Both the position numbers and the translations under genes were made by a program. Source: Escherichia phage 235Ecol030PP. From it: a stretch of DNA of 64,000 nucleotides. Below, one piece after another: positions 10,115 to 63,407 of this stretch; position 1 is the stretch's first letter; each line of letters begins with the position of its first letter. The stretch lies in sequence record PP355091.1. One strand, written 5' to 3'. The notes beneath the pieces were generated by a model. The model saw only the letters and a list, made by a program, of their open reading frames with translations, searched no databases and had not been told where the DNA came from.

Positions 10115-10128
10115 TCTTTGACGATTTA

Positions 10129-10146
10129 AGGGACCTTCGGGTCCCT
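10129..10146 (+). terminator. intrinsic terminator after gene 23 (UUCG tetraloop, U-rich tail)
   Basis: AGGGACC TTCG GGTCCCT then TTAGTTGTTTTT. Confidence 0.7.
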
Positions 10147-10162
10147 TTAGTTGTTTTTATGG

Positions 10163-10170
10163 TATAAATA
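10163..10170 (+). promoter_or_regulatory. late promoter TATAAATA for gene 24
   Basis: Exact TATAAATA about 28 nt before ATG, just after the gene 23 terminator. Confidence 0.7.
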
Positions 10171-10197
10171 AATCATATAAACCAAAAGGAAAGCGCA

Positions 10198-13094: not shown

Positions 13095-14513
13095 TTATGG
13101 ATAGGTATAGATGATACCAGTTTCTAAAGCAGTTTTATGAATGATGTATCCATTACGCGATTCTTGAACATCAACTTCTGGATAGTCTTTCATCATCTTC
13201 TGAAGAGTGTAACGATGCAGGTAGTATTTACTATCTGGATCTTCAGTTTTCCAATCTTTACCTTCTTCGGTCATTTTTTGGATTTCATCCATAACCCACC
13301 AACCGCACCAGATATAAGCTGAAGTACGGTGTGGAAGAGGATGAACATAAGGCAATTCACCTTTTGGTTCCGGAGCAACTTTATCAGTTACCTGAACTTG
13401 ACCTGTTGTTTTAACTGTTTTGCTATCATAGTCAGTTGCTGTAACGACAGCAGTAACTTCAATAGTTTGACTTCCAACAGATGAGGTATCGACAGTATAT
13501 ACGTTAGTTGACCCTTCTACAGGAGAAGAATCTTTCTTCCATGAGTAAGTAATTTGTGCTGCTTCAGGTGCGCCAGTAACATTAGCAGTAAATGTAGCCG
13601 AAGCATCTTTCTGAACGTTAATAGAAGGAGGAGTCAATGTAACCTGTGGATTCATTGTCTTCTTATTAACCGTTAATGATACTTCATTCGAAGTAACTTC
13701 CTTTTCATTGTAATTTTCTGCAGTTACTTGGGCTACGCATTTAATTCTTTTTACTCCACTTGTAGTTGGAGTATAGCTAAATGTAGAGTTAGTTTCTCCA
13801 CTAATTTGAGAATCATCTACATACCATTTATATGTAGCAGACGCTCCATCAGGTTGAGAAACTAAAGCAGCAGTAAATTGAACCGGGGTTCCAATTACTC
13901 CTGCTGGAGGACTATCAGGAGTTACTGCCAAAGTAGTTGTCTGCTCCTTTTTATTAACAGTCAGTGATACTTCATTAGAAGTAACGCTTAGTGCATCATA
14001 ATCTGTCGCGGTTACTTGAGCTACACACTTAATTTTTTTAACTCCGCTTGTGGCAGGAGTGTAATTGAATGTAGCGCTAGTTGCTTCGTCCACAGGAGAA
14101 CCGTCAACGTACCATTGATACGTAGCAGATGCACCTGATGGCTGTGAAGCTAAAGCAGCAGTAAATTCAATAGCTGTTCCGATTACTCCAGCGTCAGGGC
14201 TATTAGGAGTTACAGCTAAGGTAGTCGTTTGTGTCTTATTTTGAACTGTGATAGTTGTACTAATTTCAGCTGTTTCGGGACTACTATCGGCAACTTGATT
14301 TGTTGCAACTACTTTAATAGTCTTTTGACCGGCAGGTCCTTTTAATACATAATTAAAAGTTGCTGACGTTTCTTCCTGTTGAGCACCGTCTACAGTCCAA
14401 ACATATGTAATAGGTCCATCTCCAGTTTGACCACTGGGTGTAGCAGTAAACTGCTGAGTCTGATCTATAACTCCAGTAGGTGTTTTAGGAGTTATATCAA
14501 CTGTAAAAGCCAT
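13095..14513 (-). CDS. hoc: outer capsid decoration protein Hoc with an extra tandem Ig-like domain
   Basis: 472 aa; N-terminus MAFTVDITPKTPTGVID and C-terminal capsid-binding region match T4 Hoc; internal 96-aa unit present twice. Confidence 0.9.
   Translation of the reverse strand: MAFTVDITPKTPTGVIDQTQQFTATPSGQTGDGPITYVWTVDGAQQEETSATFNYVLKGPAGQKTIKVVATNQVADSSPETAEISTTITVQNKTQTTTLAVTPNSPDAGVIGTAIEFTAALASQPSGASATYQWYVDGSPVDEATSATFNYTPATSGVKKIKCVAQVTATDYDALSVTSNEVSLTVNKKEQTTTLAVTPDSPPAGVIGTPVQFTAALVSQPDGASATYKWYVDDSQISGETNSTFSYTPTTSGVKRIKCVAQVTAENYNEKEVTSNEVSLTVNKKTMNPQVTLTPPSINVQKDASATFTANVTGAPEAAQITYSWKKDSSPVEGSTNVYTVDTSSVGSQTIEVTAVVTATDYDSKTVKTTGQVQVTDKVAPEPKGELPYVHPLPHRTSAYIWCGWWVMDEIQKMTEEGKDWKTEDPDSKYYLHRYTLQKMMKDYPEVDVQESRNGYIIHKTALETGIIYTYP
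13659..14234 (-). repeat. tandem duplication (2 x 288 bp) inside hoc encoding two consecutive Ig-like domains
   Basis: Protein units TQTTTLAVTPNSP...SLTVNKK and EQTTTLAVTPDSP...SLTVNKK, about 75 percent identical. Confidence 0.8.
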
Positions 14514-14522
14514 AAGTTATCC

Positions 14523-15203
14523 TTATTTTAATGTTACGAAAGAAGAATTGCGTGTTTCACGAATTAGAACTGATCCGTCACGATTAATGTAGTAAATTAA
14601 GCTAAATAAAGTTTGGTGTGCTGACGCGTGTTCAAAACTAGTTGGATGAGATTTCCAATCAGGAGTTTCAGCGATCCATTGATAAATCCACCAAGGAACC
14701 GTACAGAATCCTGGATTTTTCCCCAATAATTGAAGATTCGGACTAAAGTTTTCCGGAAGAGTAAATACAGACGGCTTTTCAGATTCAATAATCTCAGCTA
14801 CAGCCTGTTCGAATTTTTCTTCAACAAAAGGAGTATCTTCAATCAAAACATCGGTATTTTCAGGAATTTTATCCGTTTCTACTACTTCAATTTTAATGTC
14901 AGATTTAACAGGAGAATCAATCAGAAGTGCTGCTTCTGGATTGACTTCTTCATCGTCATATTTTAACCCCTCTGCAGCATCAGCAGCATCAATTAAGTCT
15001 TTAATAGATAACCCATCAGTCTCTGGCATAGGTTCACTAGCGAGCTTCTGGAGGGCTTCTTCAATATCAGCAACGATATTATCAAAAGATTTATTCTTTT
15101 TGACCTTTATACCAAACTGTTCAGCGTATTCAGCTAATTTAGCTTTAGCTTCTTTGTTATCATCAAGAGCCTTCAGCTCTGCAATATAATCTTTATCTAT
15201 CAT
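14523..15203 (-). CDS. inh: inhibitor of prohead protease
   Basis: 226 aa acidic protein between hoc and uvsW as in T4. Confidence 0.7.
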   Translation of the reverse strand: MIDKDYIAELKALDDNKEAKAKLAEYAEQFGIKVKKNKSFDNIVADIEEALQKLASEPMPETDGLSIKDLIDAADAAEGLKYDDEEVNPEAALLIDSPVKSDIKIEVVETDKIPENTDVLIEDTPFVEEKFEQAVAEIIESEKPSVFTLPENFSPNLQLLGKNPGFCTVPWWIYQWIAETPDWKSHPTSFEHASAHQTLFSLIYYINRDGSVLIRETRNSSFVTLK

Positions 15204-15216
15204 AATATTTCCTCAG

Positions 15217-15224
15217 TATAAATA
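15217..15224 (+). promoter_or_regulatory. late promoter TATAAATA for uvsW
   Basis: Exact TATAAATA about 30 nt before uvsW ATG. Confidence 0.65.
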
Positions 15225-15253
15225 TAGATATATTTATTACATGGTATTTAGAC

Positions 15254-16765
15254 ATGACTGACATTAAAGTACATTTTTATGATTTTAGTCACGTGAGAAT
15301 TGATTGTGAAGAAAGTACATTTCATGAACTCCGTGATTTCTTTAGCTTTGAAGCTGATGGGTATCGTTTTAATCCGAAGTACAGATATGGCCACTGGGAT
15401 GGACGAATCCGTCTTTTAGATTATAATCGTCTTCTTCCATTCGGCTTAGTCGGGCAAATTAAAAAGTTCTGTGATAACTTTGGCTATAAAGCCTGGATTG
15501 ACCCACAAATTAATGAAAAAGAAGAATTATCAAGAAAAGATTTTGATGAATGGCTTTCTAAATTAGAAATCTATTCAGGAAATAAAAGAATTGAACCACA
15601 CTGGTATCAAAAAGATGCAGTGTTCGAAGGATTAGTTAATCGTCGTAGAATTCTTAATCTTCCAACATCTGCAGGTAAATCTTTAATTCAAGCTTTGCTT
15701 GCGCGATATTATTTGGAAAATTATGAAGGTAAAATTCTTATCATTGTTCCAACAACTGCTCTGACAACTCAGATGGCTGATGACTTCGTCGACTATCGTC
15801 TATTCAGTCATGCAATGATAAAGAAAATTGGTGGCGGAGCATCAAAAGATGATAAATATAAAAATGATGCACCAGTCGTTGTTGGTACATGGCAAACTGT
15901 AGTTAAACAACCGAAAGAATGGTTCTCACAGTTTGGAATGATGATGAATGATGAATGCCATCTTGCTACAGGAAAAAGTATTTCATCCATCATATCAGGA
16001 TTAAATAACTGCATGTTTAAATTTGGTCTATCAGGTTCATTACGTGATGGCAAAGCCAATATCATGCAGTACGTTGGAATGTTTGGTGAAATATTTAAGC
16101 CAGTAACGACTTCTAAATTAATGGAAGATGGACAAGTAACTGAGTTAAAAATTAATAGTATTTTTCTTCGCTATCCCGATGAGTTCACTACTAAATTAAA
16201 GGGAAAAACTTATCAAGAAGAAATAAAAATTATTACTGGGCTCAGTAAAAGAAATAAATGGATCGCTAAATTAGCTATTAAGCTTGCACAAAAAGATGAA
16301 AACGCTTTTGTCATGTTTAAACATGTATCGCATGGTAAAGCTATTTTCGATTTAATTAAAAATGAATACGATAAAGTTTATTACGTATCAGGGGAAGTTG
16401 ATACCGAAACCCGCAACGTAATGAAAACCTTAGCTGAAAATGGTAAAGGAATAATTATAGTAGCTAGTTATGGTGTATTTTCTACTGGTATTTCAGTTAA
16501 AAATCTGCATCATGTTGTTTTAGCGCACGGCGTTAAATCAAAAATCATTGTATTACAAACAATCGGTCGTGTATTACGTAAGCATGGTTCTAAAACAGTC
16601 GCAACAGTCTGGGACCTCATAGATGACGCGGGCGTCAAGCCAAAATCTGCTAATACGAAAAAGAAATATGTTCATTTGAACTATCTTTTAAAACACGGCA
16701 TTGATCGTATTCAGCGTTACGCAGATGAAAAATTTAATTACGTAATGAAAACAGTCAATTTATAA
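15254..16765 (+). CDS. uvsW: UvsW DNA/RNA helicase
   Basis: 503 aa, begins MTDIKVHFYDFSHVRIDCEE, helicase motifs (PTSAGKS, DECH). Confidence 0.95.
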   Translation: MTDIKVHFYDFSHVRIDCEESTFHELRDFFSFEADGYRFNPKYRYGHWDGRIRLLDYNRLLPFGLVGQIKKFCDNFGYKAWIDPQINEKEELSRKDFDEWLSKLEIYSGNKRIEPHWYQKDAVFEGLVNRRRILNLPTSAGKSLIQALLARYYLENYEGKILIIVPTTALTTQMADDFVDYRLFSHAMIKKIGGGASKDDKYKNDAPVVVGTWQTVVKQPKEWFSQFGMMMNDECHLATGKSISSIISGLNNCMFKFGLSGSLRDGKANIMQYVGMFGEIFKPVTTSKLMEDGQVTELKINSIFLRYPDEFTTKLKGKTYQEEIKIITGLSKRNKWIAKLAIKLAQKDENAFVMFKHVSHGKAIFDLIKNEYDKVYYVSGEVDTETRNVMKTLAENGKGIIIVASYGVFSTGISVKNLHHVVLAHGVKSKIIVLQTIGRVLRKHGSKTVATVWDLIDDAGVKPKSANTKKKYVHLNYLLKHGIDRIQRYADEKFNYVMKTVNL

Positions 16766-32596: not shown

Positions 32597-32965
32597 TTAT
32601 GCAACTTTAATCCAATTATCTAAATTTAATTCACCTTTGGCTTTCATTTTTTCAATCAAGAGGTCAGCGGTAATACGACCATTTTGATACCACGTAACAT
32701 CTTCAGAGTAACCAGTTTCTTTATCTTCATAAGTCTCGCAGCGAATTTTACCAAGAATCAAAGTTTTTAATTCGTATGTATCTCCAGTAAAAAAGTTAGT
32801 TAACATTATTTTCCAAGAGAAATCATCAGAAGGACCTTCAGGAGTCATACAATCTACGAATTCAAATTGTTCTTTGTATAAGTGCCACTGAAGTTCTTTA
32901 GTTTCGATAGCTTTATAGCCGTCGTGATCTTTACCTTTGATGTATGAGTTAAGATTGATTTTCAT
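32597..32965 (-). CDS. hypothetical 122-aa protein
   Basis: ATG, GGAG SD, early promoter upstream. Confidence 0.55.
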   Translation of the reverse strand: MKINLNSYIKGKDHDGYKAIETKELQWHLYKEQFEFVDCMTPEGPSDDFSWKIMLTNFFTGDTYELKTLILGKIRCETYEDKETGYSEDVTWYQNGRITADLLIEKMKAKGELNLDNWIKVA

Positions 32966-35789: not shown

Positions 35790-36022
35790 AGTACGCCATA
35801 CACCCTTTGTGCTTCAACTAATCCATCAAAATCCAATTTGAGATGTGTTATTTGATCGCCATCGCCTGGATTCACAATTACTAATACTGAGCGAGGAGTT
35901 TCGGTAATAACACGAACCGATGTTTCAGGAAATCGTTCAGAAACCTTATTTACTAATTCCTGTGCAAATAGTTTAACTTTTTCTTGGAATTCTTTAACAG
36001 TAATTGGTTTTTCGCTTAGCAT
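35786..36022 (-). CDS. hypothetical 78-aa protein (cd-pseT cluster)
   Basis: ATG start, packed. Confidence 0.45.
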   Translation of the reverse strand: MLSEKPITVKEFQEKVKLFAQELVNKVSERFPETSVRVITETPRSVLVIVNPGDGDQITHLKLDFDGLVEAQRVYGVL

Positions 36023-36543
36023 GTTGATCCTAGCTCCTTACTTTCAACATTTTTAACTAATTTGACAGAAACTAATTCAGCATCTTGAGTAATCATTACC
36101 GGACCTTCTTCATACTCTTCAAGATATTCTAGAGCTTTCTTTTTAGCTTCTTCCTTCGTATCAGTTTGAGCATAGATATAAAACATACAACCAGTAATAC
36201 CTACTACTTTCCACTTAATTTCTTTATCAGCTTTAATTTCAAATTTACTGACAGAATCATCTTTTTGAACTTCTTCGAAAAAAGAATATTCTAACATATA
36301 AGCAATTGAAAATAACGGGCTATCTTTATAGGATTCGCCCATTACATCAATAGCTTTATACCAGCAGTCATCAATTTCGCGTTTAATGCTAATAACATTT
36401 TTCGCAGGATCTATTTTTACTTTAAATGAATTTTCCCCAATAAACTGGGCAATTCGTTTATTAGCCCCGCAAGTTTCATTAAAAATATCTTTATACCCAG
36501 TTTTAAAGCGATAAACCTTATCTTCTTCAAACCATTCGCTCAT
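36016..36543 (-). CDS. hypothetical 175-aa protein (cd-pseT cluster)
   Basis: ATG, GAGGA SD, early promoter 36574-36603 upstream. Confidence 0.55.
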   Translation of the reverse strand: MSEWFEEDKVYRFKTGYKDIFNETCGANKRIAQFIGENSFKVKIDPAKNVISIKREIDDCWYKAIDVMGESYKDSPLFSIAYMLEYSFFEEVQKDDSVSKFEIKADKEIKWKVVGITGCMFYIYAQTDTKEEAKKKALEYLEEYEEGPVMITQDAELVSVKLVKNVESKELGSTC

Positions 36544-41729: not shown

Positions 41730-42818
41730 CGTATGTTCGATTGAGCTCGCTAATTCTCAACCCGTTCTCTTATGAACTGCTACATATTACTATGCAGACC
41801 AGACTATATCACAATCCCAGAGGGATTCTCCCCATTTCGAGTCGCTTGACCCTACGTCCGAAGACTAGTCGTTGAACCTTGCTTTGCAATTGTCGCCGTG
41901 CCATCGTTTATATGTTGATGGTGATAAATCTTTCTTATCACAATATGGACAATTCAATTGAATTCTATTTGGATTTAATTTACATCTGTCATTATGTTTT
42001 AGATAAAATCCAGGACCTTTACCAATGTGACCGCAGAAATCACATGTGATTTCTTTTTGTGCAGGATGGGTCCCGTTCTTAACCATTTCTAATGTTTTTG
42101 CTGATGTTCTTTTCTTATGGTCTTCTGACAAGAAATGATGCGAACCGTCATTTACCCGTTTTGATTGAGTTTCTGACTGCATTTTACCACCGCAAAATAC
42201 ATGAGTACCTTCTTTTATAGCTGCAATATTGCGTTCTTTAACTTTTGCAATATGCTCAGCTTGTTGAAAATTATGTATACCTAATGCAACTCTATTTAAA
42301 TTAGATTTACGCTGTATTTCACCGTCTAAAAGATGAAATGTACCATTTTCTATCTTAGATTTAATAGAGGCAATATTTTTAGCTCGTACTTCAGGAATAT
42401 TAAAAATCTGGATTTCTCTAGATTTTGCGGCTTTAGAAGCTAATTCAGAAATTTCTTCAGGAGAATATTTCATTCTAAGCTTTATAGCATGACAAGCCTG
42501 GTAATCTTTTTGAGCTAAATGTATATCATAATGTTCCTGTATAGAAAGGCACATCAAATTATCTAAATCATTATTTTCACGGTTACCGTCTTTATGATGG
42601 ATTTCGTATGTTCTTCCATCAGAATCTTTAGGTATAGGTCCGTTAGCATCTATCCAAATTTTTCTATAGTTCAATTGTGCATCCTCTTAAAAGTATAATC
42701 ATATTCATATTATACTAATTAAAGGTGCAAGCAAAACCTTGGCTGCTAGTTTTCCATAAAGGACTTTCCAGCAATTAAAGGAGTTTTCGATAAACGTTAC
42801 CGTTTAAAGGCGCATTTT
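41730..42818 (-). mobile_element. group I self-splicing intron in nrdB (1089 nt) carrying a homing endonuclease ORF
   Basis: Interrupts conserved R2 motif; 5' junction GCGT|AAAATGCGCC allows P1 pairing GCGU/GCGC with G.U; 3' end ...GAACATACG parallels td intron end ...GAACATAATG. Confidence 0.82.
41865..42674 (-). CDS. I-TevIII: intron-encoded HNH homing endonuclease, full length
   Basis: 269 aa; HNH motif EIHHKDGNRENNDLDNL; C-terminal Cys/His zinc-finger-like CDFCGH...CPYCDKK; apparent TTG start 7 nt after GAGGA. Confidence 0.8.
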   Translation of the reverse strand: MNYRKIWIDANGPIPKDSDGRTYEIHHKDGNRENNDLDNLMCLSIQEHYDIHLAQKDYQACHAIKLRMKYSPEEISELASKAAKSREIQIFNIPEVRAKNIASIKSKIENGTFHLLDGEIQRKSNLNRVALGIHNFQQAEHIAKVKERNIAAIKEGTHVFCGGKMQSETQSKRVNDGSHHFLSEDHKKRTSAKTLEMVKNGTHPAQKEITCDFCGHIGKGPGFYLKHNDRCKLNPNRIQLNCPYCDKKDLSPSTYKRWHGDNCKARFND

Positions 42819-43494
42819 ACGCAAAAGATACATAAAAACGAATAGCTTCCAATGCGTTGATTACATGAAGGCAAAGATAAAGAGATTTCATTAGTGCTCG
42901 TTTAGCTTCGGCTTCTTGTTTAATAGCTCGGTTTAAACGAAAGACGGCATCAGGAGATTCTTTAGCTAATTCTACAAATTCTTTAGCATTTTCCCATTCA
43001 CGGGTCTTCTTAAGAACATCATCATAATAGCGACCGATAGATTCAGCACGTTTCATGATAGCTTCATCTAATACAATCTCATCAAATACCTTAGCAGGGT
43101 CATTGAACAAGTTACGCATGATATGGGTATATGAACGACTGTGAATAGTTTCGCTAAAAGTCCATGTTGCTACCCATGTATCAAGGCTTGGATCTGAAAT
43201 CAATGGCATAAGCACAGCAGACGGTGCACGCCCCTGGATGGAGTCTAACAATGACTGGTATTTTAAGTTATTGATAAATATAGATTTTTGATGTTCTGGG
43301 AGCTTATTAAACTGTGCAGCATCCATCATCAAGTTTACTTCTTCCGGACGCCAGAAAAATGAGAGCGAACGTTCAATAAGTTCTTCAAATACCTTATGTC
43401 GTTGAATATCATAACGTGCAATTCCAAGACCTGAACCGAAGAACATAGGTTCTGTTAAAACATCAACTGGATTTGTATTAAAAACTGTGCTCAT
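42819..43494 (-). CDS. nrdB: ribonucleotide reductase small subunit, exon 1
   Basis: 225 codons plus 1 nt, ends ...AIRFYVSFA; last exon base is the T of the in-frame TAA. Confidence 0.85.
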
Positions 43495-43545
43495 AATTTT
43501 TCCTCTTAGTTAATAGATAGTGACTCGTCCATGAGTCAAATTATA

Positions 43546-45810
43546 TCATAATTTACAGGATGAACAATCTTCAGCTTTTGGAGTTTCTATTTCATAATCA
43601 TCAGTACCAGAACCATCACGGGTATTATGATAATAGAAATTTTTAATGCCATAATACCATCCGTATAGCATGTCATCAATCATTATTGACATTGGAACCT
43701 TGCCTTTAGGGAAGATTTGGGGGTCATAGTATGTATTCGCTGAAGCTGATTGACATACCCATTTCAGCATAATAGCTACCTGCGTAAGATAAGGTTTATT
43801 ACCTTTCTTAGCTAATTTCCACGTATAATCATATAGGTCTATGTTATGCTCAATATTGGGCACGACTTGATTAAAGGAGCCCTCTTTTGATTCTTTAACA
43901 GAGACTGGTCCACGTGGAGGCTCGATACCGTTTGTACTGTTAGAAACTTGGGAAGATGACTCACATGGCATAAGTGCTGATAATGTGCTATTACGGATGC
44001 CAAAGAGCTTAAGGTCTTCCCGCAGCGCCGACCAGTCACAAACGTATTTTGGAGCTGCGATTTGGTCAATCTTTTTATTGTACCAGTCGATAGGTAATTC
44101 GCCTCGAGACCAACGAGTGTCTGAATAATATTCGCAAGGTCCTTTTTCTTTGGCGAGCTTAATGGATGCTTTAATGAGTCCATACTGTAATCTCTCAAAT
44201 AGTTCATGTGTTAAATCGTTAGCATCTTCATAAGAAGCAAAGTTACTTGCCAGCCAAGCCGCATAGTTGGTAACACCTACACCGAGGTTACGACGCTTTT
44301 TAGCTTTTTCTGCTTCAGGAACTGGATATCCTTGGTAATCCAAAAGATTATCAAGAGCACGAACTTGAACTTCTGCCAATTCATTAATTTTATCTTGGTC
44401 TTGCCAGTCAAAATTGTCTAATACGAAGGCAGAGAGAGTACAGAGCCCAATTTCAGCATCAGGGCTATTCACATCATTTGTTGGAATAGCAATTTCACAA
44501 CACAAGTTACTCTGGCGAATAGGCGCCTTTTCACGAATAAACGGAGTATAGTTATTCGTATTATCAATGAACTGCACATAAATCCTTGCTGTTCCTGAGC
44601 GTTCAGTCATGAGCAATTCAAATAGTTCACGGGCTTTAATACGCTTTTTACGAATATTAGGGTCTTTTTCTGCTGCTTCGTATAATTCACGGAAACGGTC
44701 TTGGTCTTTAAAATAAGAATAATAAAGCTCGCCACTCATTTCATGCGGACTGAACAAAGTAATGTAATCGTTCTTTCCGAATCGTTCCATCATCAAATCA
44801 TTCAGCTGAACACCATAATCCATATGACGAATGCGGTTTTCTTCTACGCCTTTGTTATTTTTCAAAACGAGAAGATTTTCAACTTCCAAATGCCAAATAG
44901 GATAATAAGCAGTAGCAGCGCCGCCACGAATTCCACCCTGTGAGCATGATTTAACTGCAGTCTGAAAATGTTTCCAAAAAGGAATAACACCGGTATGACG
45001 CACTTCACCCATGCCAATCTTAGAACCTTCGGCACGAATCATACCTACGTTAATTCCAATTCCAGCGCGTTTAGAGATATATTCAACAATTGAAGCGGAA
45101 GCCTTATTGATAGACTTCAATGAATCTCCTGCCTCAATAACAACACATGAACTAAACTGTCGAGTCGGAGTACGGCAACCAGCCATAATAGGAGTTGGCA
45201 ATGAAATCTGTCGAGTAGATACTGCTTCATAAAAACGAATAACATGTTTTAATCTATCAACAGGTTCATCTTGATGCAATGCCATTCCAATAGTCATAAA
45301 TGCAAACTGTGGAGTTTCATAAATTTGACCAGTGGTTTTATCTTTAACTAAATATTTTTCTTTTAATTGCATCGCCCCGGAATAAGTAAATTCCATATCC
45401 CGTTCGTGCTTAATTTTTGATTCTAAAAATGTAATTTCTTCTGCTGAATATTTTGACAATAATTCAGGGTCATATTTACCTTCATTTACACAGTAAGAAA
45501 TATGGTCAATAAATGAACGTGGTTCATACTGCCCATAAACATGCTTACGAAGAGCGAACATTAAACAGCGTGCAGCTACATATTGATAATCAGGCTCTTC
45601 AACCGAAATAGAATTCGCAGCGGCCTTAATGACAATAGTCTGAATATCATCAGTTGTCATTCCATCACGGAGATAAGATTTAATATTTTCATATAATTCA
45701 TAAGGATCTACTGATGTTCCTTCAGCTGCCCAAGATAAAACTTTAATAATTTTTTGTGGGTCAAAGCTCTGAGAAACACCACTACTTTTGATAACATTAA
45801 TTAATTGCAT
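43546..45810 (-). CDS. nrdA: ribonucleotide reductase large subunit
   Basis: 754 aa as T4 NrdA; class I RNR sequence. Confidence 0.95.
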   Translation of the reverse strand: MQLINVIKSSGVSQSFDPQKIIKVLSWAAEGTSVDPYELYENIKSYLRDGMTTDDIQTIVIKAAANSISVEEPDYQYVAARCLMFALRKHVYGQYEPRSFIDHISYCVNEGKYDPELLSKYSAEEITFLESKIKHERDMEFTYSGAMQLKEKYLVKDKTTGQIYETPQFAFMTIGMALHQDEPVDRLKHVIRFYEAVSTRQISLPTPIMAGCRTPTRQFSSCVVIEAGDSLKSINKASASIVEYISKRAGIGINVGMIRAEGSKIGMGEVRHTGVIPFWKHFQTAVKSCSQGGIRGGAATAYYPIWHLEVENLLVLKNNKGVEENRIRHMDYGVQLNDLMMERFGKNDYITLFSPHEMSGELYYSYFKDQDRFRELYEAAEKDPNIRKKRIKARELFELLMTERSGTARIYVQFIDNTNNYTPFIREKAPIRQSNLCCEIAIPTNDVNSPDAEIGLCTLSAFVLDNFDWQDQDKINELAEVQVRALDNLLDYQGYPVPEAEKAKKRRNLGVGVTNYAAWLASNFASYEDANDLTHELFERLQYGLIKASIKLAKEKGPCEYYSDTRWSRGELPIDWYNKKIDQIAAPKYVCDWSALREDLKLFGIRNSTLSALMPCESSSQVSNSTNGIEPPRGPVSVKESKEGSFNQVVPNIEHNIDLYDYTWKLAKKGNKPYLTQVAIMLKWVCQSASANTYYDPQIFPKGKVPMSIMIDDMLYGWYYGIKNFYYHNTRDGSGTDDYEIETPKAEDCSSCKL

Positions 45811-46652: not shown

Positions 46653-46971
46653 CATTATGTTCAGATAAGGTCGTTAATCTTACCCCGGAATTATATCCAG
46701 CTGCATGTCACCATGCAGATCAGACTATATCTTCAACTTGTTAAAGCAAGTTGTCTATCGTTTCGAGTCACTTGACCCTACTCCCCAAAGGGATAGTCGT
46801 TAGGCATTTATGTAGAACCAATTCCATTATCAGATTTTACACGGTAAGTAACTAATCCTGATGAAATTATTAAAGGGTAGTCCTACAATTTAGCACGGGA
46901 TTGTCTACTAGAGAGGTTCCCCGTTTAGATAGATTACAAGTATAAGTCACCTTATACTCAGGCCTCAATTA
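46653..46971 (-). ncRNA. td group I intron, ORF-less (319 nt)
   Basis: 5' end TAATTGAGGCCTGAGTATAAGGTGACTTATAC and 3' end ...GATTAACGACCTTATCTGAACATAATG match remembered T4 td intron ends; no room for an I-TevI ORF. Confidence 0.88.
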
Positions 46972-47519
46972 ACCCAAGAAAACATCTACTGATCGTTGAT
47001 ACCACTGCAAATCCAAATAACCATTACGCACATTAAACTGATAGAACATATGACAAGGTGGTAATGCCATATATTTAAGTTCAGCTGGATTCCACGCAGA
47101 AACAATTTGACGCCTATCATTTGGCAGTTTTTTAATACGATCAATAACTTCTATAATTTGATCTACACCACCAAAATCACGCCACTGTTTTCCATAAATT
47201 GGACCAAGTTCACCGCTATGGTATCCTAAATCTTTTGCTTGATTTTCGTAATTTTCATCCCAAACTGTTTTGCCTTGGATTAACGAATCATGTTGAATTA
47301 ATCGCAAATCATTGACATTTGTGCTTCCCGATAAAAACCAAAGCAGCTCAGCAATGCAAGCTTTCCAGGCGAGCTTCTTAGTTGTTACTGCAGGAAAACC
47401 TTTAGTTAAATCCCAGCGTAATTTAGTACCGAACAAAGCAATTGTTCCTGTGCCTGTTCGGTCATCGGTTTCGTAGCCATTTTCCAGGATATCTTTAATT
47501 AAAAATTGGTATTGTTTCA

Positions 47520-47520: not shown

Positions 47521-48549
<1,029 letters not shown>

Positions 48550-48862: not shown

Positions 48863-49123
48863 TTATTTTTGAATTTTATCGAGCCACTTACCAAGCTTAA
48901 TCATTTCTTTAGTAGCCTTTTCCATACTTCTGAACTTAACCAATAGAGGATAGGTATCGACACCCATAACTAAACTGGTTACAAGACTGTGTTCACCCAC
49001 AAGCCATAACGAATACGTTTGAATATCGAGTCCGTAATTTCTGTCTTTATGGACCCGTACACCCATCACTTCAAATTTCTCACTAGCTTTTTCTACCGCA
49101 TCCAGGAAATCATCTTTAGTCAT
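48863..49123 (-). CDS. hypothetical 86-aa protein (frd-32 cluster)
   Basis: Start set to ATG 49123 (AAGG SD), 2 nt after the upstream ORF stop. Confidence 0.4.
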   Translation of the reverse strand: MTKDDFLDAVEKASEKFEVMGVRVHKDRNYGLDIQTYSLWLVGEHSLVTSLVMGVDTYPLLVKFRSMEKATKEMIKLGKWLDKIQK

Positions 49124-49124
49124 A

Positions 49125-49511
49125 TTAGGCCTTAAAAGTTTTTCGCAAAAGTTCAATGATTTCATCTACATTGTTTTCGTCAACAATGCAGTGAATTTTT
49201 GTTACGCCAGAAACCTTGTCTTTGACTTCATCCTCTTCAGAAGTTGGTTCTTTATATTCGCGGAAACAATAAAACTCTTCTTCACTAAGTTCAAAATAAT
49301 CATCACCCATACCATCATCATTATAGATTTCACCGTTAGCACAAATGATTTCGGTTACATAATCAAAGCCATCTAAACTTGATATTGATTTAACTTCAAA
49401 CCAACCACCATTTTCTTGAATGATGCCGACCATATTAGCATTTGATGAACTAATATCAATGAAAGATTTAATACGGTGTGGATTTAACTCGTATTTTTTG
49501 CCGATTTCCAT
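49125..49511 (-). CDS. hypothetical acidic 128-aa protein (frd-32 cluster)
   Basis: Start set to ATG 49511 (GAGGA SD); hairpin upstream. Confidence 0.45.
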   Translation of the reverse strand: MEIGKKYELNPHRIKSFIDISSSNANMVGIIQENGGWFEVKSISSLDGFDYVTEIICANGEIYNDDGMGDDYFELSEEEFYCFREYKEPTSEEDEVKDKVSGVTKIHCIVDENNVDEIIELLRKTFKA

Positions 49512-50835: not shown

Positions 50836-50918
50836 TTTTATTTCCTTTTTAATTTAATTAACAGTTGGTGCTATGACGATGTATGACCTCATAGCTGGTC
50901 AGTGAGATAATTATAATC
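50836..50918 (-). promoter_or_regulatory. gene 32 mRNA leader / translational operator region
   Basis: A/U-rich UUAAA repeats (TTAATTAAATTAAAAAGGAAATAAAA) before ATG, preceded by GC-containing structured segment; gp32 autoregulation is established for T4. Confidence 0.5.
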
Positions 50919-50926
50919 TATTTATA
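50919..50926 (-). promoter_or_regulatory. late promoter (minus strand) for gene 32
   Basis: Plus strand TATTTATA about 84 nt upstream of gene 32 ATG. Confidence 0.55.
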
Positions 50927-50934
50927 ATAAGCAA

Positions 50935-57078: not shown

Positions 57079-58194
57079 ATGGAAAAATTTATGGCAGAGT
57101 TTGGACAAGGATATGTCCAAACGCCATTTTTATCGGAAAGCAATTCAGTAAGATATAAAATAAGCATAGCGGGTTCTTGCCCGCTTTCTACAGCAGGTCC
57201 ATATGTTAAATTTCAGGATAATCCTGTCGGAAGTCAAACATTTAGTGCAGGTCTTCATTTAAGAGTTTTTGATCCTTCTACGGGAGCATTAGTTGATAGT
57301 AAGTCATATGCTTTTTCTACTTCAAACAATACAACATCTGCCGCTTTTGTCAGTTTCATGAATTCTTTGTCAAACAATAGACTTGTTGCTATATTAACTA
57401 GCGGAAAGGTTAATTTTCCTCCTGAAGTGGTATCTTGGTTAAGGGGAGCAGGAACTTCAGTTTTTCCATCAGATTCAGTATTGTCAAGATTTGACGTGTC
57501 ATATGCTGCTTTTTATACTTCTTCTAAAAGAGCTATTGCATTAGAGCATGTTAAACTAAGTAATAGAAAAAGCACAGATGATTATCAAACTATTTTAGAT
57601 GTTGTATTTGATAGTTTAGAAGACGTCGGAGCTACGGGATTTCCTAAAAGAACATATGAAAGTGTCGAGCAATTTATGTCTGCGGTTGGAGGAACTAATA
57701 ATGAAATTGCGCGATTGCCAACTTCAGCTGCGATAAGTAAATTATCTGATTATAATTTAATTCCTGGAGATGTTCTTTATCTTAAAACACAGCTATACGC
57801 CGATGCCGATTTACTTGCTCTTGGAACTACAAATATATCTATCCGTTTTTATAATGAATCGAATGGATATATTTCCTCGACACAAGCTGAATTTACCGGG
57901 CAAGCTGGGTCATGGGAATTAAAGGAAGATTATGTAGTTGTTCCTGAAAATGCAGTAGGATTTACGATATATGCACAAAGAACTGTCCAAGCAGGTCAAG
58001 GCGGCATGAGAAATTTAAGCTTTTCTGAAGTATCAAGAAATGGCGGCATTTCAAAACCTGCAGAATTTGGCGTCAACGGTATTCGCGTTAATTATGTCTG
58101 CGAATCGGCTTCACCTCCAGATATAATGGTACTTCCTACACAAGCCTCTTCTAAAACTGGCAAAGTGTTTGGGCAAGAATTTAGAGAAGTTTAA
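57079..58194 (+). CDS. 35: long tail fibre hinge protein
   Basis: 371 aa; synteny. Confidence 0.9.
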   Translation: MEKFMAEFGQGYVQTPFLSESNSVRYKISIAGSCPLSTAGPYVKFQDNPVGSQTFSAGLHLRVFDPSTGALVDSKSYAFSTSNNTTSAAFVSFMNSLSNNRLVAILTSGKVNFPPEVVSWLRGAGTSVFPSDSVLSRFDVSYAAFYTSSKRAIALEHVKLSNRKSTDDYQTILDVVFDSLEDVGATGFPKRTYESVEQFMSAVGGTNNEIARLPTSAAISKLSDYNLIPGDVLYLKTQLYADADLLALGTTNISIRFYNESNGYISSTQAEFTGQAGSWELKEDYVVVPENAVGFTIYAQRTVQAGQGGMRNLSFSEVSRNGGISKPAEFGVNGIRVNYVCESASPPDIMVLPTQASSKTGKVFGQEFREV

Positions 58195-58256: not shown

Positions 58257-58907
58257 ATGGCTGATTTAAAAGTAGGTTCAACTGTAGGTGGATCTGTCAT
58301 TTGGCATCAAGGAAATTTTCCATTGAATTCAGCCGGTGACGATGTACTCTACAAATCATTTAAAATATATTCAGAATATAATAAACCACAGGCAGCTGAT
58401 AACGATTTCGTTTCTAAAGCTAATGGTGGTACTTACGCCGGTCCAATTACTATTAATTACGGGGTAAATAGTTATCTTCAATTAAGTAATAATGAAACCC
58501 CTATTCGAATTCGTTCTGGTGGCGGTACCGGTAATACTCTTGTAGTTGGCGGCTCTTCCGGCGGTATTAGTTTTAGACCTGCAGGTAGTGAAATCACTAC
58601 TGGACAAATTACGATTACGCCAGAAGGTTTGACAACATTTACCAAAGCTGTAACGGCTCCATCTGTAACTGTTACATCTACTCCTTCCGCAGCATCTGAT
58701 GTTACTCGTAAAGATTATGTTGATGGAGCAATAAATACTGTTACGGCAAATGCGAATTCTAGAGTTTTGCGTAAAGGTGACACCATGACAGGTAATTTAA
58801 CAGCGCCAAACTTTTTCTCGCAGAATCCTGCATCTCAACCTTCACACGTTCCACGATTTGACCAAATCGTAATTAAGGATTCTGTTCAAGATTTCGGCTA
58901 TTATTAA
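58257..58907 (+). CDS. 36: long tail fibre distal connector
   Basis: 216 aa; late promoter 58226-58233. Confidence 0.9.
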
Positions 58908-58915
58908 GAGGACTT

Positions 58916-61885
58916 ATGGCTACTTTAAAACAAATACAATTTAAAAGAAGCAAAACTGCAGGTCAACGTCCTGCTGCTTCAGTATTAGCCGAAGGTGAAT
59001 TGGCTATAAACTTAAAAGATAAAACAATTTTCACAAAAGATGACTCAGGTAGTGTTATAGAATTAGGTTTAAAATATGGAGGAACAATTGATGGTTCTTT
59101 AACTGTTAATGGAAACATAATTGGAAATTTAACAGGTAACGCTGCAACCGCAACGAAATTAAAAACAGCACGAAAGATTAATGGTATATCTTTTGATGGG
59201 TCAAAGGACATTACCCTAACTCCATCTGACATAAATGTCAATAGCACAACATTTATAAAAAATAATGGCGAATTACCTACTGATGCTAATTTAGATACGT
59301 ATGGGCCCATTGAAGAATATCTTGGTGTTTGGTCGAAATCTACTTCAACAAATGCGCAACCAGCAAATAAATTCCCAGAAGAAAATGCCGTAGGTGTACT
59401 AGAAGTATTTGTGGCCGGCCAATTTGCTGGCACTCAGCGTTATACTGTTCGGTCTGGTAACGTTTATATCCGTTCTTTATCTGCGAAATGGAATGGCGTA
59501 GATGGTCCATGGGGTCCGTGGCGCAATATTCAAACTGGCACACGTCCACTATCAACTACACTAGACTTGAATACTTTAGGTGATGCTTCTCATTTTGGGT
59601 TATGGCGAAATAGTTCAAGTTCCATTGCATCATTTTCTCGAAATTACCCAGAAGAAGGTGGTCTCGCGCAAGGTCTTTTAGAAGTTTATGAAGGTGGTAA
59701 CTATTCTCGCACGCAACGTTATACTACCCGAATGGGTGTTGTATATGTTCGTTGTCTTGCTAGTGCATGGGATCCAGAAGCTCCGAATTGGGGACCGTGG
59801 CAACAAGTAGGTATGGTTACTCCAAACACATTCTATGACGGGGATCTTAATAATTTTCGTTCTCCTGGCTTGTATAACATTTTAGGGACTGATGCCGTTA
59901 TTAACCGTCCAGTTGCAGAAGGTGTTCCGGTTGAGATGACCGGATTGCTTGAGGTTAAACAGCGTGCTTCCGGTGGCGCTATTTTCCAACGTTTCACTAC
60001 CGCAGGAACGGGTGCAACTACGCGATCTCGCGTGTTTGAACGTGCAATGACAAATAATATCTGGGGAAATTGGTACGAAGTATATACGTCCTATTCTATG
60101 CCAATTACTTTGGGTATGGGTGGTATTAAAACTCAATTAGCGGAGCTAGATTGGCAAACATTTGATTTTGTTCCTGGTAGTATGTTTAGCGTTCCTTTGA
60201 ACAAAATAAAGAACATGCCAGCAAATATGAATTGGGGCACGATTGACGGAAACTTGATTATGTTTTCTGTCGGTCCTAGCGAACACACCAGCACAGGACG
60301 TACTGTTCAGGTTTGGCGTGGTACTGTATCCCAGACAAACTACCGTTATTTTGTCGTTCGTGTGTTCGGTAATTCTGGAAATAGAACTTGCACAGTTCGT
60401 CGTGTTGTTCTTGAAGATGGTCGCCACACATGGACAGCTCAACAAGATTTTAATGGTGCTGTTAACTTTGGTAGTTCAACAACGTTTAAATCAACTACAA
60501 CATTTAATACAGAAGTTAAATTCCGCTCATCTAATGCTTTCCGTATGACCGCTGGTAATTATGATGTTATTTGGCGTAATGATGGTGGCAGTTTTTATCT
60601 ACTTTCTACTGACGAGAATGATAAAGATGGGCAGTGGAACACCAATCGACCTATCACTTATGGATTGAGTTCTGGTACTCTTAACTTAGGTGGTAAAAGT
60701 AGCGGAAATGCTCTTGCATTAGAACGAGATTCGCTTGCCGCGCATTTTAGTGGTGATGTTAATATTAAAGTTGGTTATTTAACCTTTAATTCTGGGCGAT
60801 TAAATTCTCGCGATTACTTCCGGTTTAACCATTGGGGTGATAGCAATAACGCTCGTGATAACATTATTCAGTTAGAAGATAGCAAAGGCGCTCATTTTTC
60901 CACTGAACGTACTTTAGCGACTGGTGCAATTAAAACTAAATTCTTTGGTGAAGTTGAATCAACTGGTCGATTGACTATTAAACGTCCGGGTGATGCTATT
61001 GTATTATCGACTACAGCCAGCAACGCTTTGCATATTCGTGGTGACGTAGACGGGACTGGTAACTGGTATATTGGCAAGGGTGGTGCTGATAATGGATTAG
61101 CGTTCTATAGTTATGCTACTAATGCTGGTGTATACATTACAAACGGAGGGGATATCGCGCTAAGTCCAAAAGGCGTCGAAATGGCTCATGTCAATAACGT
61201 TCGATTCTATGTTCATGGTGAACGTTGGACCGCTAGTCAGCCAGGTGATTGGGGTAGTCAGTGGCAAGTGGAAGCGCCAATATTCGTCGATCATGGTTAT
61301 GTTTCACCTGATTGTTATTATCCAATTATTAAAGGAAGAAGTTTAATCACCAATCAAGGGTATAGCACCGCTGTTGACTTTGGTCTTCGTCGTGTCCCTA
61401 ACAATTGGGGACAAGCAATCATTCGCGTTGGATCTGCGGAGAACTCGCCAGCGGCTGGTCATCCTCAAGCTGTATTCGAGTTCCATCATGATGGTACTTT
61501 CTATTCTCCTGGTAATGGTAACTTTAACGATGTGTATATTCGTTCCGATGGTCGTCTTAAGATTAATAAAAAAGAGCTAGAAAACGGAGCACTTGAAAAA
61601 GTATGCCGACTGAAAGTTTATACATACGATAAGGTTAAGTCTATTAAAGACCGTAGTGTTATTAAACGTGAAGCTGGTATTATTGCTCAGGATCTTGAAA
61701 AAGAGCTACCAGAAGCTGTATCTAAAGTTGAAGTTGATGGATCTGATGTTCTGACAATTTCTAACTCGGCAGTGAATGCTCTTTTAATTAAGGCTATTCA
61801 GGAAATGAGTGAAGAAATTAAAGAATTGAAAACTCCTTTCTTTACTAAAATTGCTCGCAAAATTAGTAAATATTTTAAATTCTAA
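58916..61885 (+). CDS. 37: long tail fibre distal subunit with C-terminal chaperone/autoprotease-like domain
   Basis: 989 aa; begins [20 protein letters not shown]; C-terminal SDGRLK...[14 protein letters not shown] block. Confidence 0.92.
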
Positions 61886-61891
61886 CAACAA

Positions 61892-61906
61892 GGGGGAAAT
61901 GCCCCC
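61892..61906 (+). other. G5/C5 stem-loop between genes 37 and 38
   Basis: GGGGG AAATG CCCCC then TTT. Confidence 0.45.
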
Positions 61907-61921
61907 TTTGGAGTATAAATT

Positions 61922-62719
61922 ATGGCAGTAGTTGGAGTTCCTGGCTGGATTGGAAGTTCAGCCGTAAATGAAACAGGACAGCGCTGGATGAGTCAAGCGG
62001 CTGGTCAATTAAGATTGGGTGTTCCTTGCTGGATGAGTCAATTTGCAGGTCGTTCACGAGAAATTATTCATACTGTAGGAGCAAACCACAATTTTAATGG
62101 TCAGTGGTTCCGAGATAGATGTTTTGAGGCAGGTAGTACACCTATTGTATTCAATATTGTTGGTGATATTGTTTCTTATTCTAAAGATGTTCCTTTATTC
62201 TTCATGTACGGGGATACACCAAATGAATATGTTCAGTTAAATATTATTGGCGCTCATATGTGGGGTAGAGGTGGACAAGGTGGATGGACTCATTCCGGTG
62301 GAGATGGTAATGGACAACAAGGCGGGCATTGTATTCAAAACGACATTGGTGGACGATTAAGAATTAACAATGGTGGAGTAATCTGTGGTGGCGGAGGCGG
62401 TGGTGGCGGCATTGCTTACCGTGTTCACTCAGGGGCAAACTGGCAAGATATTGGTGGTGGCGGCGGAAGACCATTTGGCCCAGGTGGTGGCGGTGGTTAC
62501 TCAGGTGGCGCAGCTTCATACGTCGCCCCAGGAGGTGGTTACCAATACGGAAATGCTCACTCTGGCCAGGGCGGCGATGCCGGAGGAAATGGACAAAATG
62601 CCTGGTCTGATGGTGGTAAAGTTCTAAAGGTTGGTGCAGGAGGAGCAGCAGGTTATGCTGTCATAGGATCTGCTCCAACTTGGCAAAATGTTGGAGTAAT
62701 ATATGGTCCAAGAGTATAA
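61922..62719 (+). CDS. 38: T2-type receptor-recognising adhesin with glycine-rich motifs
   Basis: 265 aa; begins [15 protein letters not shown]; poly-Gly blocks (GGGGGGGG, GGGGG) separating variable segments. Confidence 0.85.
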
Positions 62720-62750
62720 TTTTGAATAAATACCCCTAAAAGGAGGGTCT

Positions 62751-63407
62751 ATGGCAGCACCTAGAATATCATTTTCGCCCTCTGATATTCTATTTGGTGT
62801 TCTAGATCGCTTGTTCAAAGATAACGCTACCGGGAAAGTTCTTGCTTCCCGGGTAGCTGTCGTAATTCTTTTGTTTATGATGGCGATTGTTTGGTATAGG
62901 GGAGATAGTTTCTTTGAGTACTATAAGCAATCAAAGTATGAAACATACAGTGAAATTATTGAAAAGGAAAGAAATGCACGCTTTGAATCTGTCGCCCTGG
63001 AACAACTCCAGATAGTTCACATATCATCTGAGGCAGACTTTAGTGCGGTGTATTCTTTCCGCCCTAAAAACTTAAACTATTTTGTTGATATTATAGCATA
63101 TGAAGGAAAATTACCTTCAACAATAAGTGAAAAATCACTTGGAGGATATCCTGTTGATAAAACTATGGATGAATATACAGTTCATTTAAATGGACGTCAT
63201 TATTATTCCGACTCAAAATTTGCTTTTTTACCAACTAAAAAGCCTACTCCCGAAATAAACTACATGTACAGTTGTCCATATTTTAATTTGGATAATATCT
63301 ATGCTGGAACGATAACCATGTACTGGTATAGAAATGATCATATAAGTAATGACCGCCTTGAATCAATATGTGCTCAGGCGGCCAGAATATTAGGAAGGGC
63401 TAAATAA
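62751..63407 (+). CDS. t: holin
   Basis: 218 aa as T4 T; N-terminal TM segment VAVVILLFMMAIVWY; follows gene 38. Confidence 0.9.
   Translation: MAAPRISFSPSDILFGVLDRLFKDNATGKVLASRVAVVILLFMMAIVWYRGDSFFEYYKQSKYETYSEIIEKERNARFESVALEQLQIVHISSEADFSAVYSFRPKNLNYFVDIIAYEGKLPSTISEKSLGGYPVDKTMDEYTVHLNGRHYYSDSKFAFLPTKKPTPEINYMYSCPYFNLDNIYAGTITMYWYRNDHISNDRLESICAQAARILGRAK

Follow-up and report, generated by a model that had tools for sequence, protein, structure and literature searches.

In Salmonella phage S16, a single gp38 monomer is mounted on the gp37 trimer via an N-terminal three-helix bundle, and three conserved tryptophans of gp38 sit in symmetry-related gp37 pockets (PMC6851490). The bundle is followed by a five-ring beta-helix and then by ten glycine-rich motifs, which are polyglycine-II (PGII) helices that form a three-layer sandwich (PMC6851490). 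The hypervariable segments of S16 gp38 are the distal connecting loops of this sandwich (PMC6851490). The adhesin form of gp38 is described as predominant, and T4 as the exception, in PMC6851490 and PMC3157838. T4 gp38 is a Tfa-like tail-fibre assembly chaperone that is not a component of the virion, and T4 binds its receptor via the gp37 tip.

Two further properties of the adhesin family are relevant here. The N-terminal subtype of gp38 co-varies with the C-terminal subtype of gp37 as a lock and key (Trojet et al., PMC3157838), and the modular exchange of gp38 specificity domains is an established principle (Trojet 2011, PMC3157838). As for receptors, RB32 requires OmpA, with an additional sensitivity to lipopolysaccharide (LPS) composition (Trojet et al. 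2011, PMC3157838), and Ox2 is a classical OmpA phage. When plated on MG1655 deletion strains, AV119 and FL08 proved to be OmpA-dependent (Lutz et al. 2025, PMC12032242). Neither phage plates in the absence of ompA, and for AV119 the remaining receptor deletions that were tested leave plating possible (PMC12032242). The ‘type 1’ adhesins of AV119 and FL08 infect strains with all eight tested OmpA variants, and their modelled OmpA contacts comprise R165 with V166-A170, R181, D217 and R262 (PMC12032242). In RB51/RB68, a single gp38 loop substitution, Q206L, switches the receptor from OmpF to OmpW. Which form of gp38 is found in Escherichia phage 235Ecol030PP, and which receptor does it recognize?

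Gene 38 of this phage was analysed within a 64,000-nt stretch of its DNA (the window), in which the gene order is 35-36-37-38-t-asiA. The locus contains the following features:

57079-58194: gp35, 96% identical to T4
58257-58907: gp36, 67% identical to T4 and 97% to T6
58916-61885, plus strand: gene 37, distal long-tail-fibre subunit of 989 aa, T6/Ox2-like (ORF list, blastp, Pfam)
59071-62725: sole large block without a T4 nucleotide match, 3,655 nt, the gene 37-38 host-range cassette (blastn against T4)
61891-61907, plus strand: G+C hairpin that follows the gene 37 stop and precedes the ribosome-binding site of gene 38 (RNA fold)
61910-61913, plus strand: Shine-Dalgarno sequence GGAG, 8 nt 5' of the gene 38 ATG (read from the sequence)
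61922-62719 including the stop, plus strand: gene 38, assigned as the 265-aa long-tail-fibre tip adhesin (receptor-recognising protein; ORF list, Pfam, PDB)
62751-63407: holin gene t, Phage_holin_T match at 1.9e-117, 98.6% identical to T4
Position of asiA, minus strand: a 90-aa ORF (ORF list)

The whole window was compared with T4 positions 93000-165000 using blastn. The otherwise T4-like backbone described by the first-pass annotation is borne out by this comparison, in which 57,840 of the 64,000 nt (90%) align to T4, collinearly with T4 96,400-161,470 and with long segments that are mostly 93-98.5% identical. The one large non-T4 block consists of gene 37 from approximately codon 52 and all of gene 38. 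T4 identity returns at position 62726 (98.5%), seven bases past the gene 38 stop and just before holin gene t.

Gene 38 is an intact open reading frame of 265 codons with an ATG start (window ORF list). With an in-frame TAA at 61916-61918, the gene cannot extend further upstream, and its start codon is settled. Folding of the RNA of 61878-61924, which contains the hairpin, gives -14.8 kcal/mol (z = -2.9). The sequence TATAAATT directly 5' of the ATG looks like a T4 late-promoter box and overlaps the spacer between the Shine-Dalgarno sequence and the ATG; its reading as a late promoter was not adopted.

The gene 38 product is assigned, by its PF05268 and PF21721 matches, to the adhesins of the T-even gp38 class (T2/T6/S16 class). 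Pfam Gp38_N (PF21721) matches aa 1-42 with an E value of 2.9e-20, and Pfam GP38 (PF05268, ‘phage tail fibre adhesin Gp38’) matches aa 47-265 with an E value of 3.8e-66, spanning profile positions 1-218 of 218 and scoring 223.5 bits (cut-off, 25). Among PDB sequences, the top match (E 1.5e-70) is the phage PP01 gp38 receptor-binding domain fused to sfGFP (9V85). The second (E 7.4e-53, over aa 5-262) is 6F45 chain D, which is S16 gp38 complexed with the gp37 tip. These two domains and two solved adhesin structures uphold the earlier designation of gp38 as a receptor-recognising adhesin. The exact 265-aa protein is deposited at NCBI as WZX06500.1, ‘receptor-recognizing protein’ of Escherichia phage 235Ecol030PP. 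The identity of gp38 was known and annotated beforehand, and the gene is real but ordinary. A literature search on the names 235Ecol030PP, 232Ecol030PP and 215Ecol030PP found no paper.

A T4-type gp38, that is, a Tfa-like chaperone that assists gp37 folding and stays outside the virion, would carry this gene name and lie at this place on the map, between genes 37 and t; name and place are all that T4 gp38 and the window gp38 have in common. However, a blastp comparison of T4 gp38 (183 aa) with the window gp38 returned zero alignments even at E<=10; an alignment identifying gp38 as the T4-type chaperone was what the first-pass annotation had named as speaking against an adhesin. The Pfam search of gp38 found no Tfa-type domain, and both adhesin domains match a protein of 265 aa rather than 183 aa. 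The fibre subunit argues in the same direction, given that gp37 carries its own C-terminal intramolecular chaperone and is without the T4 receptor-binding tip, with only aa 1-66 in common with T4 gp37. A T4-type chaperone at this locus is thus rejected at the sequence level as exceedingly improbable.

The adhesin assignment of gp38 is matched by the organization of gp37. Blastp aligns gp37 with T6 gp37 along the full length at 85% identity and with T4 gp37 over aa 1-66 only, at 79%. Pfam identifies Gp34_trimer and Peptidase_S74 in gp37, the latter (PF13884, ‘chaperone of endosialidase’) at aa 877-935 with an E value of 2e-11. Two regions were delineated towards the C-terminus of gp37:

61316-61543, plus strand: predicted mature fibre tip for gp38, gp37 aa 801-876, Ox2/T6 subtype (alignment)
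61544-61882, plus strand: C-terminal intramolecular chaperone, gp37 aa 877-989 (PF13884, alignment)

A self-cleaving intramolecular chaperone is typical of fibres that bear a separate adhesin, and, by analogy with the family, gp37 aa 877-989 are expected to be cleaved off after trimerisation. The gp37 subtype was determined by aligning the last 250 residues. In the tip, 66 of the 76 residues are identical to Ox2 and 61 to T6, compared with 25-29 for FL08, AV119 and PP01. The intramolecular chaperone has 112/113 identities to Ox2, 106/113 to T6 and 34-36/113 to FL08, AV119 and PP01, and the latter three gp37 proteins contain about 85 additional residues ahead of the chaperone. The lock-and-key rule holds in the window, where gp38 at its N-terminus and gp37 at its tip and chaperone are all of the Ox2/T6 subtype; AV119, FL08 and PP01 have the other subtype in both gp38 and gp37. 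The attachment domain and the gp37 tip thus share a subtype in each phage.

The domains and loops of gp38 were delineated as follows, with loops A-E placed by mapping the PP01 gp38 loops (PMC12892980) onto the window gp38 alignment (all on the plus strand):

61922-62059, plus strand: N-terminal attachment domain (three-helix bundle), aa 1-46, containing W9, W22 and W37; T6/Ox2/RB32 subtype (PF21721, alignment)
62060-62263, plus strand: central beta-helix domain, first part, aa 47-114 (PF05268 begins at aa 47)
62264-62656, plus strand: region of glycine-rich motifs and hypervariable segments, aa 115-245, predicted to form the polyglycine-II sandwich and distal receptor loops (alignment with S16 and PP01)
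62387-62410, plus strand: eight-glycine motif G156-G163, which aligns to S16 PGII helix 3 (151-GGGGGGGG-158)
62291-62308, plus strand: loop A equivalent, aa 124-129, HSGGDG (corresponds to W119-I124 of PP01)
62417-62446, plus strand: loop B equivalent, aa 166-175, containing R167-V-H-S-G-A (alignment mapping)
62489-62500, plus strand: loop C equivalent, aa 190-193, GGGY, short (alignment mapping)
62543-62557, plus strand: loop D equivalent, aa 208-212, QYGNA (alignment mapping)
62603-62623, plus strand: loop E equivalent, aa 228-234, WSDGGKV (alignment mapping)

Glycine accounts for 26% of the whole protein and 40% of aa 115-245. The poly-Gly blocks that, together with the length of 265 aa against about 183 aa in T4, had first drawn attention to gp38 are all found, four in number: the run G156-G163 (GGGGGGGG), G178-G182 (IGGGGGRPF), G188-G192 (PGGGGGY) and GGDAGGNG at aa 217-224. 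In an alignment of nine adhesins including S16, the invariant positions comprise W9, W22 and W37, the glycine-motif columns GRGG 115-118, G157-162 and GGGGGRP 178-184 and the further glycines at 204, 206, 215, 217, 218, 221, 224 and 241. Per-column conservation places the variable stretches between these invariant columns, at aa 121-133, 164-177, 190-203, 207-214 and 225-240. The S16 (6F45) and PP01 (9V85) adhesins, both of which bind OmpC, are homologous to the window gp38 along the full length and align with it in register at the tryptophans, the beta-helix and the PGII glycine motifs. The view that the glycine motifs separate variable segments agrees with this register, in which the segments correspond to the variable loops. 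We infer the fold of gp38, including the polyglycine-II sandwich, by homology to these solved structures.

Does the glycine tract have to be functional at all? An unusual composition is what a decayed remnant of gene 38, or a low-complexity artefact in the glycine runs, would also display. However, the reading frame is intact and preceded by a good ribosome-binding site, every invariant column of the family is kept, and functional phages propagated in the laboratory share the final 498 nt at 100% identity. There is virtually no chance that gene 38 is such a remnant or artefact. Judged by the Pfam and PDB matches, the glycine tract is a genuine family feature and not a chance low-complexity tract.

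The window gp38 was compared segment by segment with eight receptor-characterised adhesins, with identities given for aa 1-46, aa 47-100 and aa 101-265, the last being the receptor-binding domain (RBD):

RB32: 46/46; 47/54; 156/165 (95%)
Ox2: 45/46; 49/54; 134/165 (81%)
FL08: 27/46; 48/54; 164/165
AV119: 24/46; 47/54; 165/165
T6: 45/46; 51/54; 94/165 (57%)
PP01: 25/46; 47/54; 89/165 (54%)
T2: 30/46; 18/54; 76/165 (46%)
S16: 26/46; 23/54; 79/165 (48%)

The alignment with T2, T6 and other gp38 proteins that the first-pass annotation had recommended thus assigns the hypervariable segments and identifies the closest RBDs as those of AV119 (100%), FL08 (164/165), RB32 (95%) and Ox2 (81%), all of them OmpA phages. 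In AV119 (OR352949.1) and FL08 (PP400785.1), gene nt 301-798 are 100% and 99.8% identical to the window gene 38, respectively, and both proteins agree with the window gp38 in all five distal loops and at the reported OmpA contacts. Their attachment domain, in contrast, belongs to a PP01-like subtype that is just 52-59% identical to that of the window gp38. RB32 and Ox2, the classical OmpA phages, share both the architecture and the receptor class. Loop A (HSGGDG) is identical in AV119, RB32 and Ox2. Loop B is the same as in AV119, whereas RB32 and Ox2 carry YRPHSGAKWQ, in which P replaces V168 and K replaces N173.

The adhesins for other receptors are clearly distinct in the loops. All of loops A-E are identical to AV119, unlike those of T6, T2, PP01 and S16. 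T6, which uses Tsx, resembles the window phage in gp37 (85% over the full length) and gp36 (97%) but differs in all five gp38 loops. S16 and PP01 differ in loops and receptor, with RBD identities of 48% and 54%. T2, which uses FadL/OmpF, belongs to the same family and has the same order of domains and the same conserved glycine motifs; however, its gp38 is 47% identical overall, with segment values of 65% (aa 1-46) and 33% (aa 47-100), all of its loops are different and its gp37 is much longer (1341 aa). The label ‘T2-type’ given to gp38 in the first-pass annotation consequently holds as the conventional name of the adhesin class and fails in the narrow sense: a T2-like gp38 with FadL/OmpF specificity is rejected on the 47% identity and the differences in all loops. 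The T4 RefSeq note itself contains the phrase ‘T2 subfamily’.

The receptor of the phage is predicted, with good support, to be OmpA, in the broad ‘type 1’ recognition class. OmpA is predicted because the RBD (aa 101-265) is identical to that of AV119 and one residue off that of FL08, both of which are OmpA-dependent. The window gp38 is two residues longer at the N-terminus than AV119 and FL08 gp38, and the ‘type 1’ contact residues are accordingly found at +2, as R167-VHSGA-172, R183, D219 and R264; R167-V-H-S-G-A in loop B corresponds to R165-A170 in AV119/FL08 numbering. RBD identity to the non-OmpA adhesins is much lower, at 57% for T6 (Tsx), 54% for PP01 (OmpC), 48% for S16 (OmpC) and 46% for T2 (FadL/OmpF). 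Single loop substitutions can change the receptor, and the prediction of OmpA therefore hinges on strict identity to AV119, which holds. We assume that receptor choice is unaffected by the seven substitutions relative to AV119 within aa 47-100 and by the attachment domain and gp37 tip, which also differ.

The adhesin could instead recognize something other than OmpA alone, either Tsx, OmpC, OmpF or FadL or a combination of OmpA and an obligatory LPS core. Point mutations in gp38 loops can switch or extend receptors, as in Ox2 host-range mutants, RB32 is LPS-sensitive with an RBD that is 95% identical, and phages isolated on Yersinia, Shigella and Salmonella carry this RBD too. However, the RBD is residue for residue that of AV119, whose plating needs ompA among the deletions tested, and all five loops are far from those of the Tsx, OmpC and FadL/OmpF adhesins. 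Enterobacteria of these genera share a conserved OmpA, and the distribution of the RBD over several genera is therefore compatible with OmpA. A receptor requirement other than OmpA alone is unlikely on this evidence, and a co-requirement for LPS beside OmpA stays conceivable, given the LPS sensitivity of RB32. OmpA recognition by the RBD is the reading that we retain.

How was this adhesin put together? The RBD is encoded by a discrete segment of gene 38:

62222-62719, plus strand: receptor-binding module, 498 nt, gene nt 301-798 (nucleotide identity)

This module is 100% identical at the nucleotide level in AV119, AV120, PYPS2T, JK08, EC101, a15 and KMB26 and at least 99% identical in 31 phage records, whose hosts are Escherichia, Shigella, Yersinia and Salmonella. 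Binned nucleotide identities differ along the gene. Gene nt 1-120 are 53-63% identical to AV119/FL08 and 97-98% identical to RB32, and for nt 121-300 the identity lies at 82-92% with all comparators. At the protein level, aa 47-100 come nearest to T6 (51/54). The segment nt 121-300 is the only part of the gene without a near-identical relative; a megablast donor search with 62030-62225 found no exact parent, and the best matches, CHD94UKE2, WilhelmHis, UTI-E2 and others, reach 94.9%. Gene 38 is, on these identities, a recombinant of known modules that joins a T6/Ox2/RB32-type attachment domain to an AV119-type receptor-binding module, and the receptor-binding module, by the same comparison, has moved between two backgrounds of attachment domain and gp37 tip.

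The combination of a T6/Ox2-type N-terminus and an AV119-type module is common. PYPS2T (Yersinia), JK08 (Shigella), ECML-123-2, a15, EC101 and 232Ecol030PP have the same combination with 97.0-97.4% protein identity over 265 aa, and with some twenty more phages the range is 96-97.4%. Seven substitutions separate the PYPS2T/JK08 group from the window gp38. Six of them lie within aa 52-83, where the window allele is T6-like, and the seventh is at aa 14. In the same group, nt 121-300 are only 85-92% identical to the window gene 38. A tentative reading, which we regard as possible but somewhat short of probable, is that the shuffling was very recent. The identical 498-nt module would then stand behind two incompatible types of attachment domain and gp37 tip and might serve as a portable cross-genus OmpA ‘key’, with a junction at nt ~180-300 and a third parent suggested by the private middle segment; this three-parent mosaic is drawn from binned identities and not from a formal recombination test. 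Modular exchange of gp38 specificity domains was reportedly already established by Tetart in 1998, and such exchange has recently been reproduced by engineering. Taken as a whole, the locus is very probably best explained by a gene 38 product that is an OmpA-type gp38 tail-fibre tip adhesin and a mosaic of known modules.

We propose a working scheme for the fibre tip whose steps have been shown for homologues; for the window proteins, we infer gp37 processing, virion incorporation and receptor choice. gp38 would be present as a single copy per long tail fibre, capping the tip and making the first reversible contact with the host. In the first step, gp37 would trimerise with the aid of its own C-terminal chaperone (aa 877-989), which would then be cleaved off. 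A gp38 monomer would subsequently dock on the trimeric tip by its three-helix bundle, inserting W9, W22 and W37 into three symmetry-related pockets. The beta-helix would bear two extensions of glycine-rich motifs, which, as polyglycine-II helices, would make up a rigid sandwich. Finally, the five distal loops (aa 124-129, 166-175, 190-193, 208-212 and 228-234) may bind the extracellular loops of the outer-membrane protein.

How unusual is a gp38 of this kind? In the phage collection, 809 records contain an adhesin homologue, compared with 297 that contain a T4 gp38 homologue; approximately 90 of the 297 are less than 60% identical, and lambdoid Tfa proteins are among the weakest matches listed. 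The first-pass annotation had viewed gp38 as one mark of a mosaic T-even genome. Most T-even phages have an adhesin-type gp38, and its presence therefore does not mark the genome as unusual. Gene 38 provides one further natural example of specificity-domain exchange between fibre-tip backgrounds and raises no new question. The receptor is predictable from the sequence alone as OmpA, in the broad ‘type 1’ class, which is of modest practical value. The prediction would help in choosing cocktail phages with non-overlapping resistance routes, and the main path to resistance against this phage is predicted to be the loss of ompA or changes in the OmpA loops.

Four homing-endonuclease genes of T4, segD, segE, mobE and segG, each approximately 620-790 nt in that phage, are missing from their T4 positions in the window, as determined by blastn against T4 and the T4 annotation. 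At the corresponding junctions, the T4-like flanks are separated by only 20-60 nt:

10125-10186, 15240-15260, 43494-43550 and 50898-50934, junctions where segD, segE, mobE and segG are missing

The thymidylate synthase (td) region contains a compact group I intron that matches the full Rfam model RF00028 at 73.8 bits:

46701-46981, minus strand, group I intron of 281 nt

T4 143769-144457, which comprises most of the I-TevI homing-endonuclease ORF, has no blastn counterpart in the window, and thus the td intron appears to be ORF-less.

The nrdB region (42126-43494) is also unlike that of T4. The 476 nt at 42126-42601 lack any T4 match by blastn, and 42602-43494 exhibits only 83% identity. T4 contains a single intron-split nrdB, whereas the window presents two ORFs at the same place:

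41865-42674, minus strand, ORF
42817-43494, minus strand, ORF

No Rfam intron was detected in the nrdB region at the gathering score, and nrdB is annotated as two pieces in related records.

The hoc/inh region (13947-15240) shares only 90.9% identity with T4 by blastn. Because T4 110751-111053 is covered by two overlapping alignments with this region, the alignments suggest that the hoc gene of the window differs from T4 hoc in repeat register or length. Shorter stretches of approximately 200-520 nt likewise have no T4 nucleotide match by blastn:

32609-32947, stretch without T4 match
36022-36540, stretch without T4 match
47522-47722, stretch without T4 match
48324-48526, stretch without T4 match
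48874-49131, stretch without T4 match
58439-58677, stretch without T4 match, inside gene 36

The tail-fibre protein gp36 is 97% identical to gp36 of T6, in contrast to 67% identity with T4 gp36. In the fibre hinge protein gp35 (57079-58194), residues 58-112 unexpectedly match the Pfam family ILEI, 'interleukin-like EMT inducer' (5.4e-8; 33.7 bits, cut-off 27).

A G+C-rich hairpin follows the stop codon of gene 37 and precedes the ribosome-binding site of gene 38:

61891-61907, hairpin AGGGGG-AAAUG-CCCCCU

In the MFE fold (-14.8 kcal/mol; z = -2.9 versus shuffles), GGAG is paired by the outer stem. The hairpin might stabilise the transcript or act as an attenuator.

Phages whose isolation host was E. 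coli, Shigella or Yersinia pseudotuberculosis carry the receptor-binding module of gene 38 (62222-62719) with 100% nucleotide identity; in one Salmonella phage the identity is 99.2%. Thus, a single module of the predicted OmpA type circulates among host genera.
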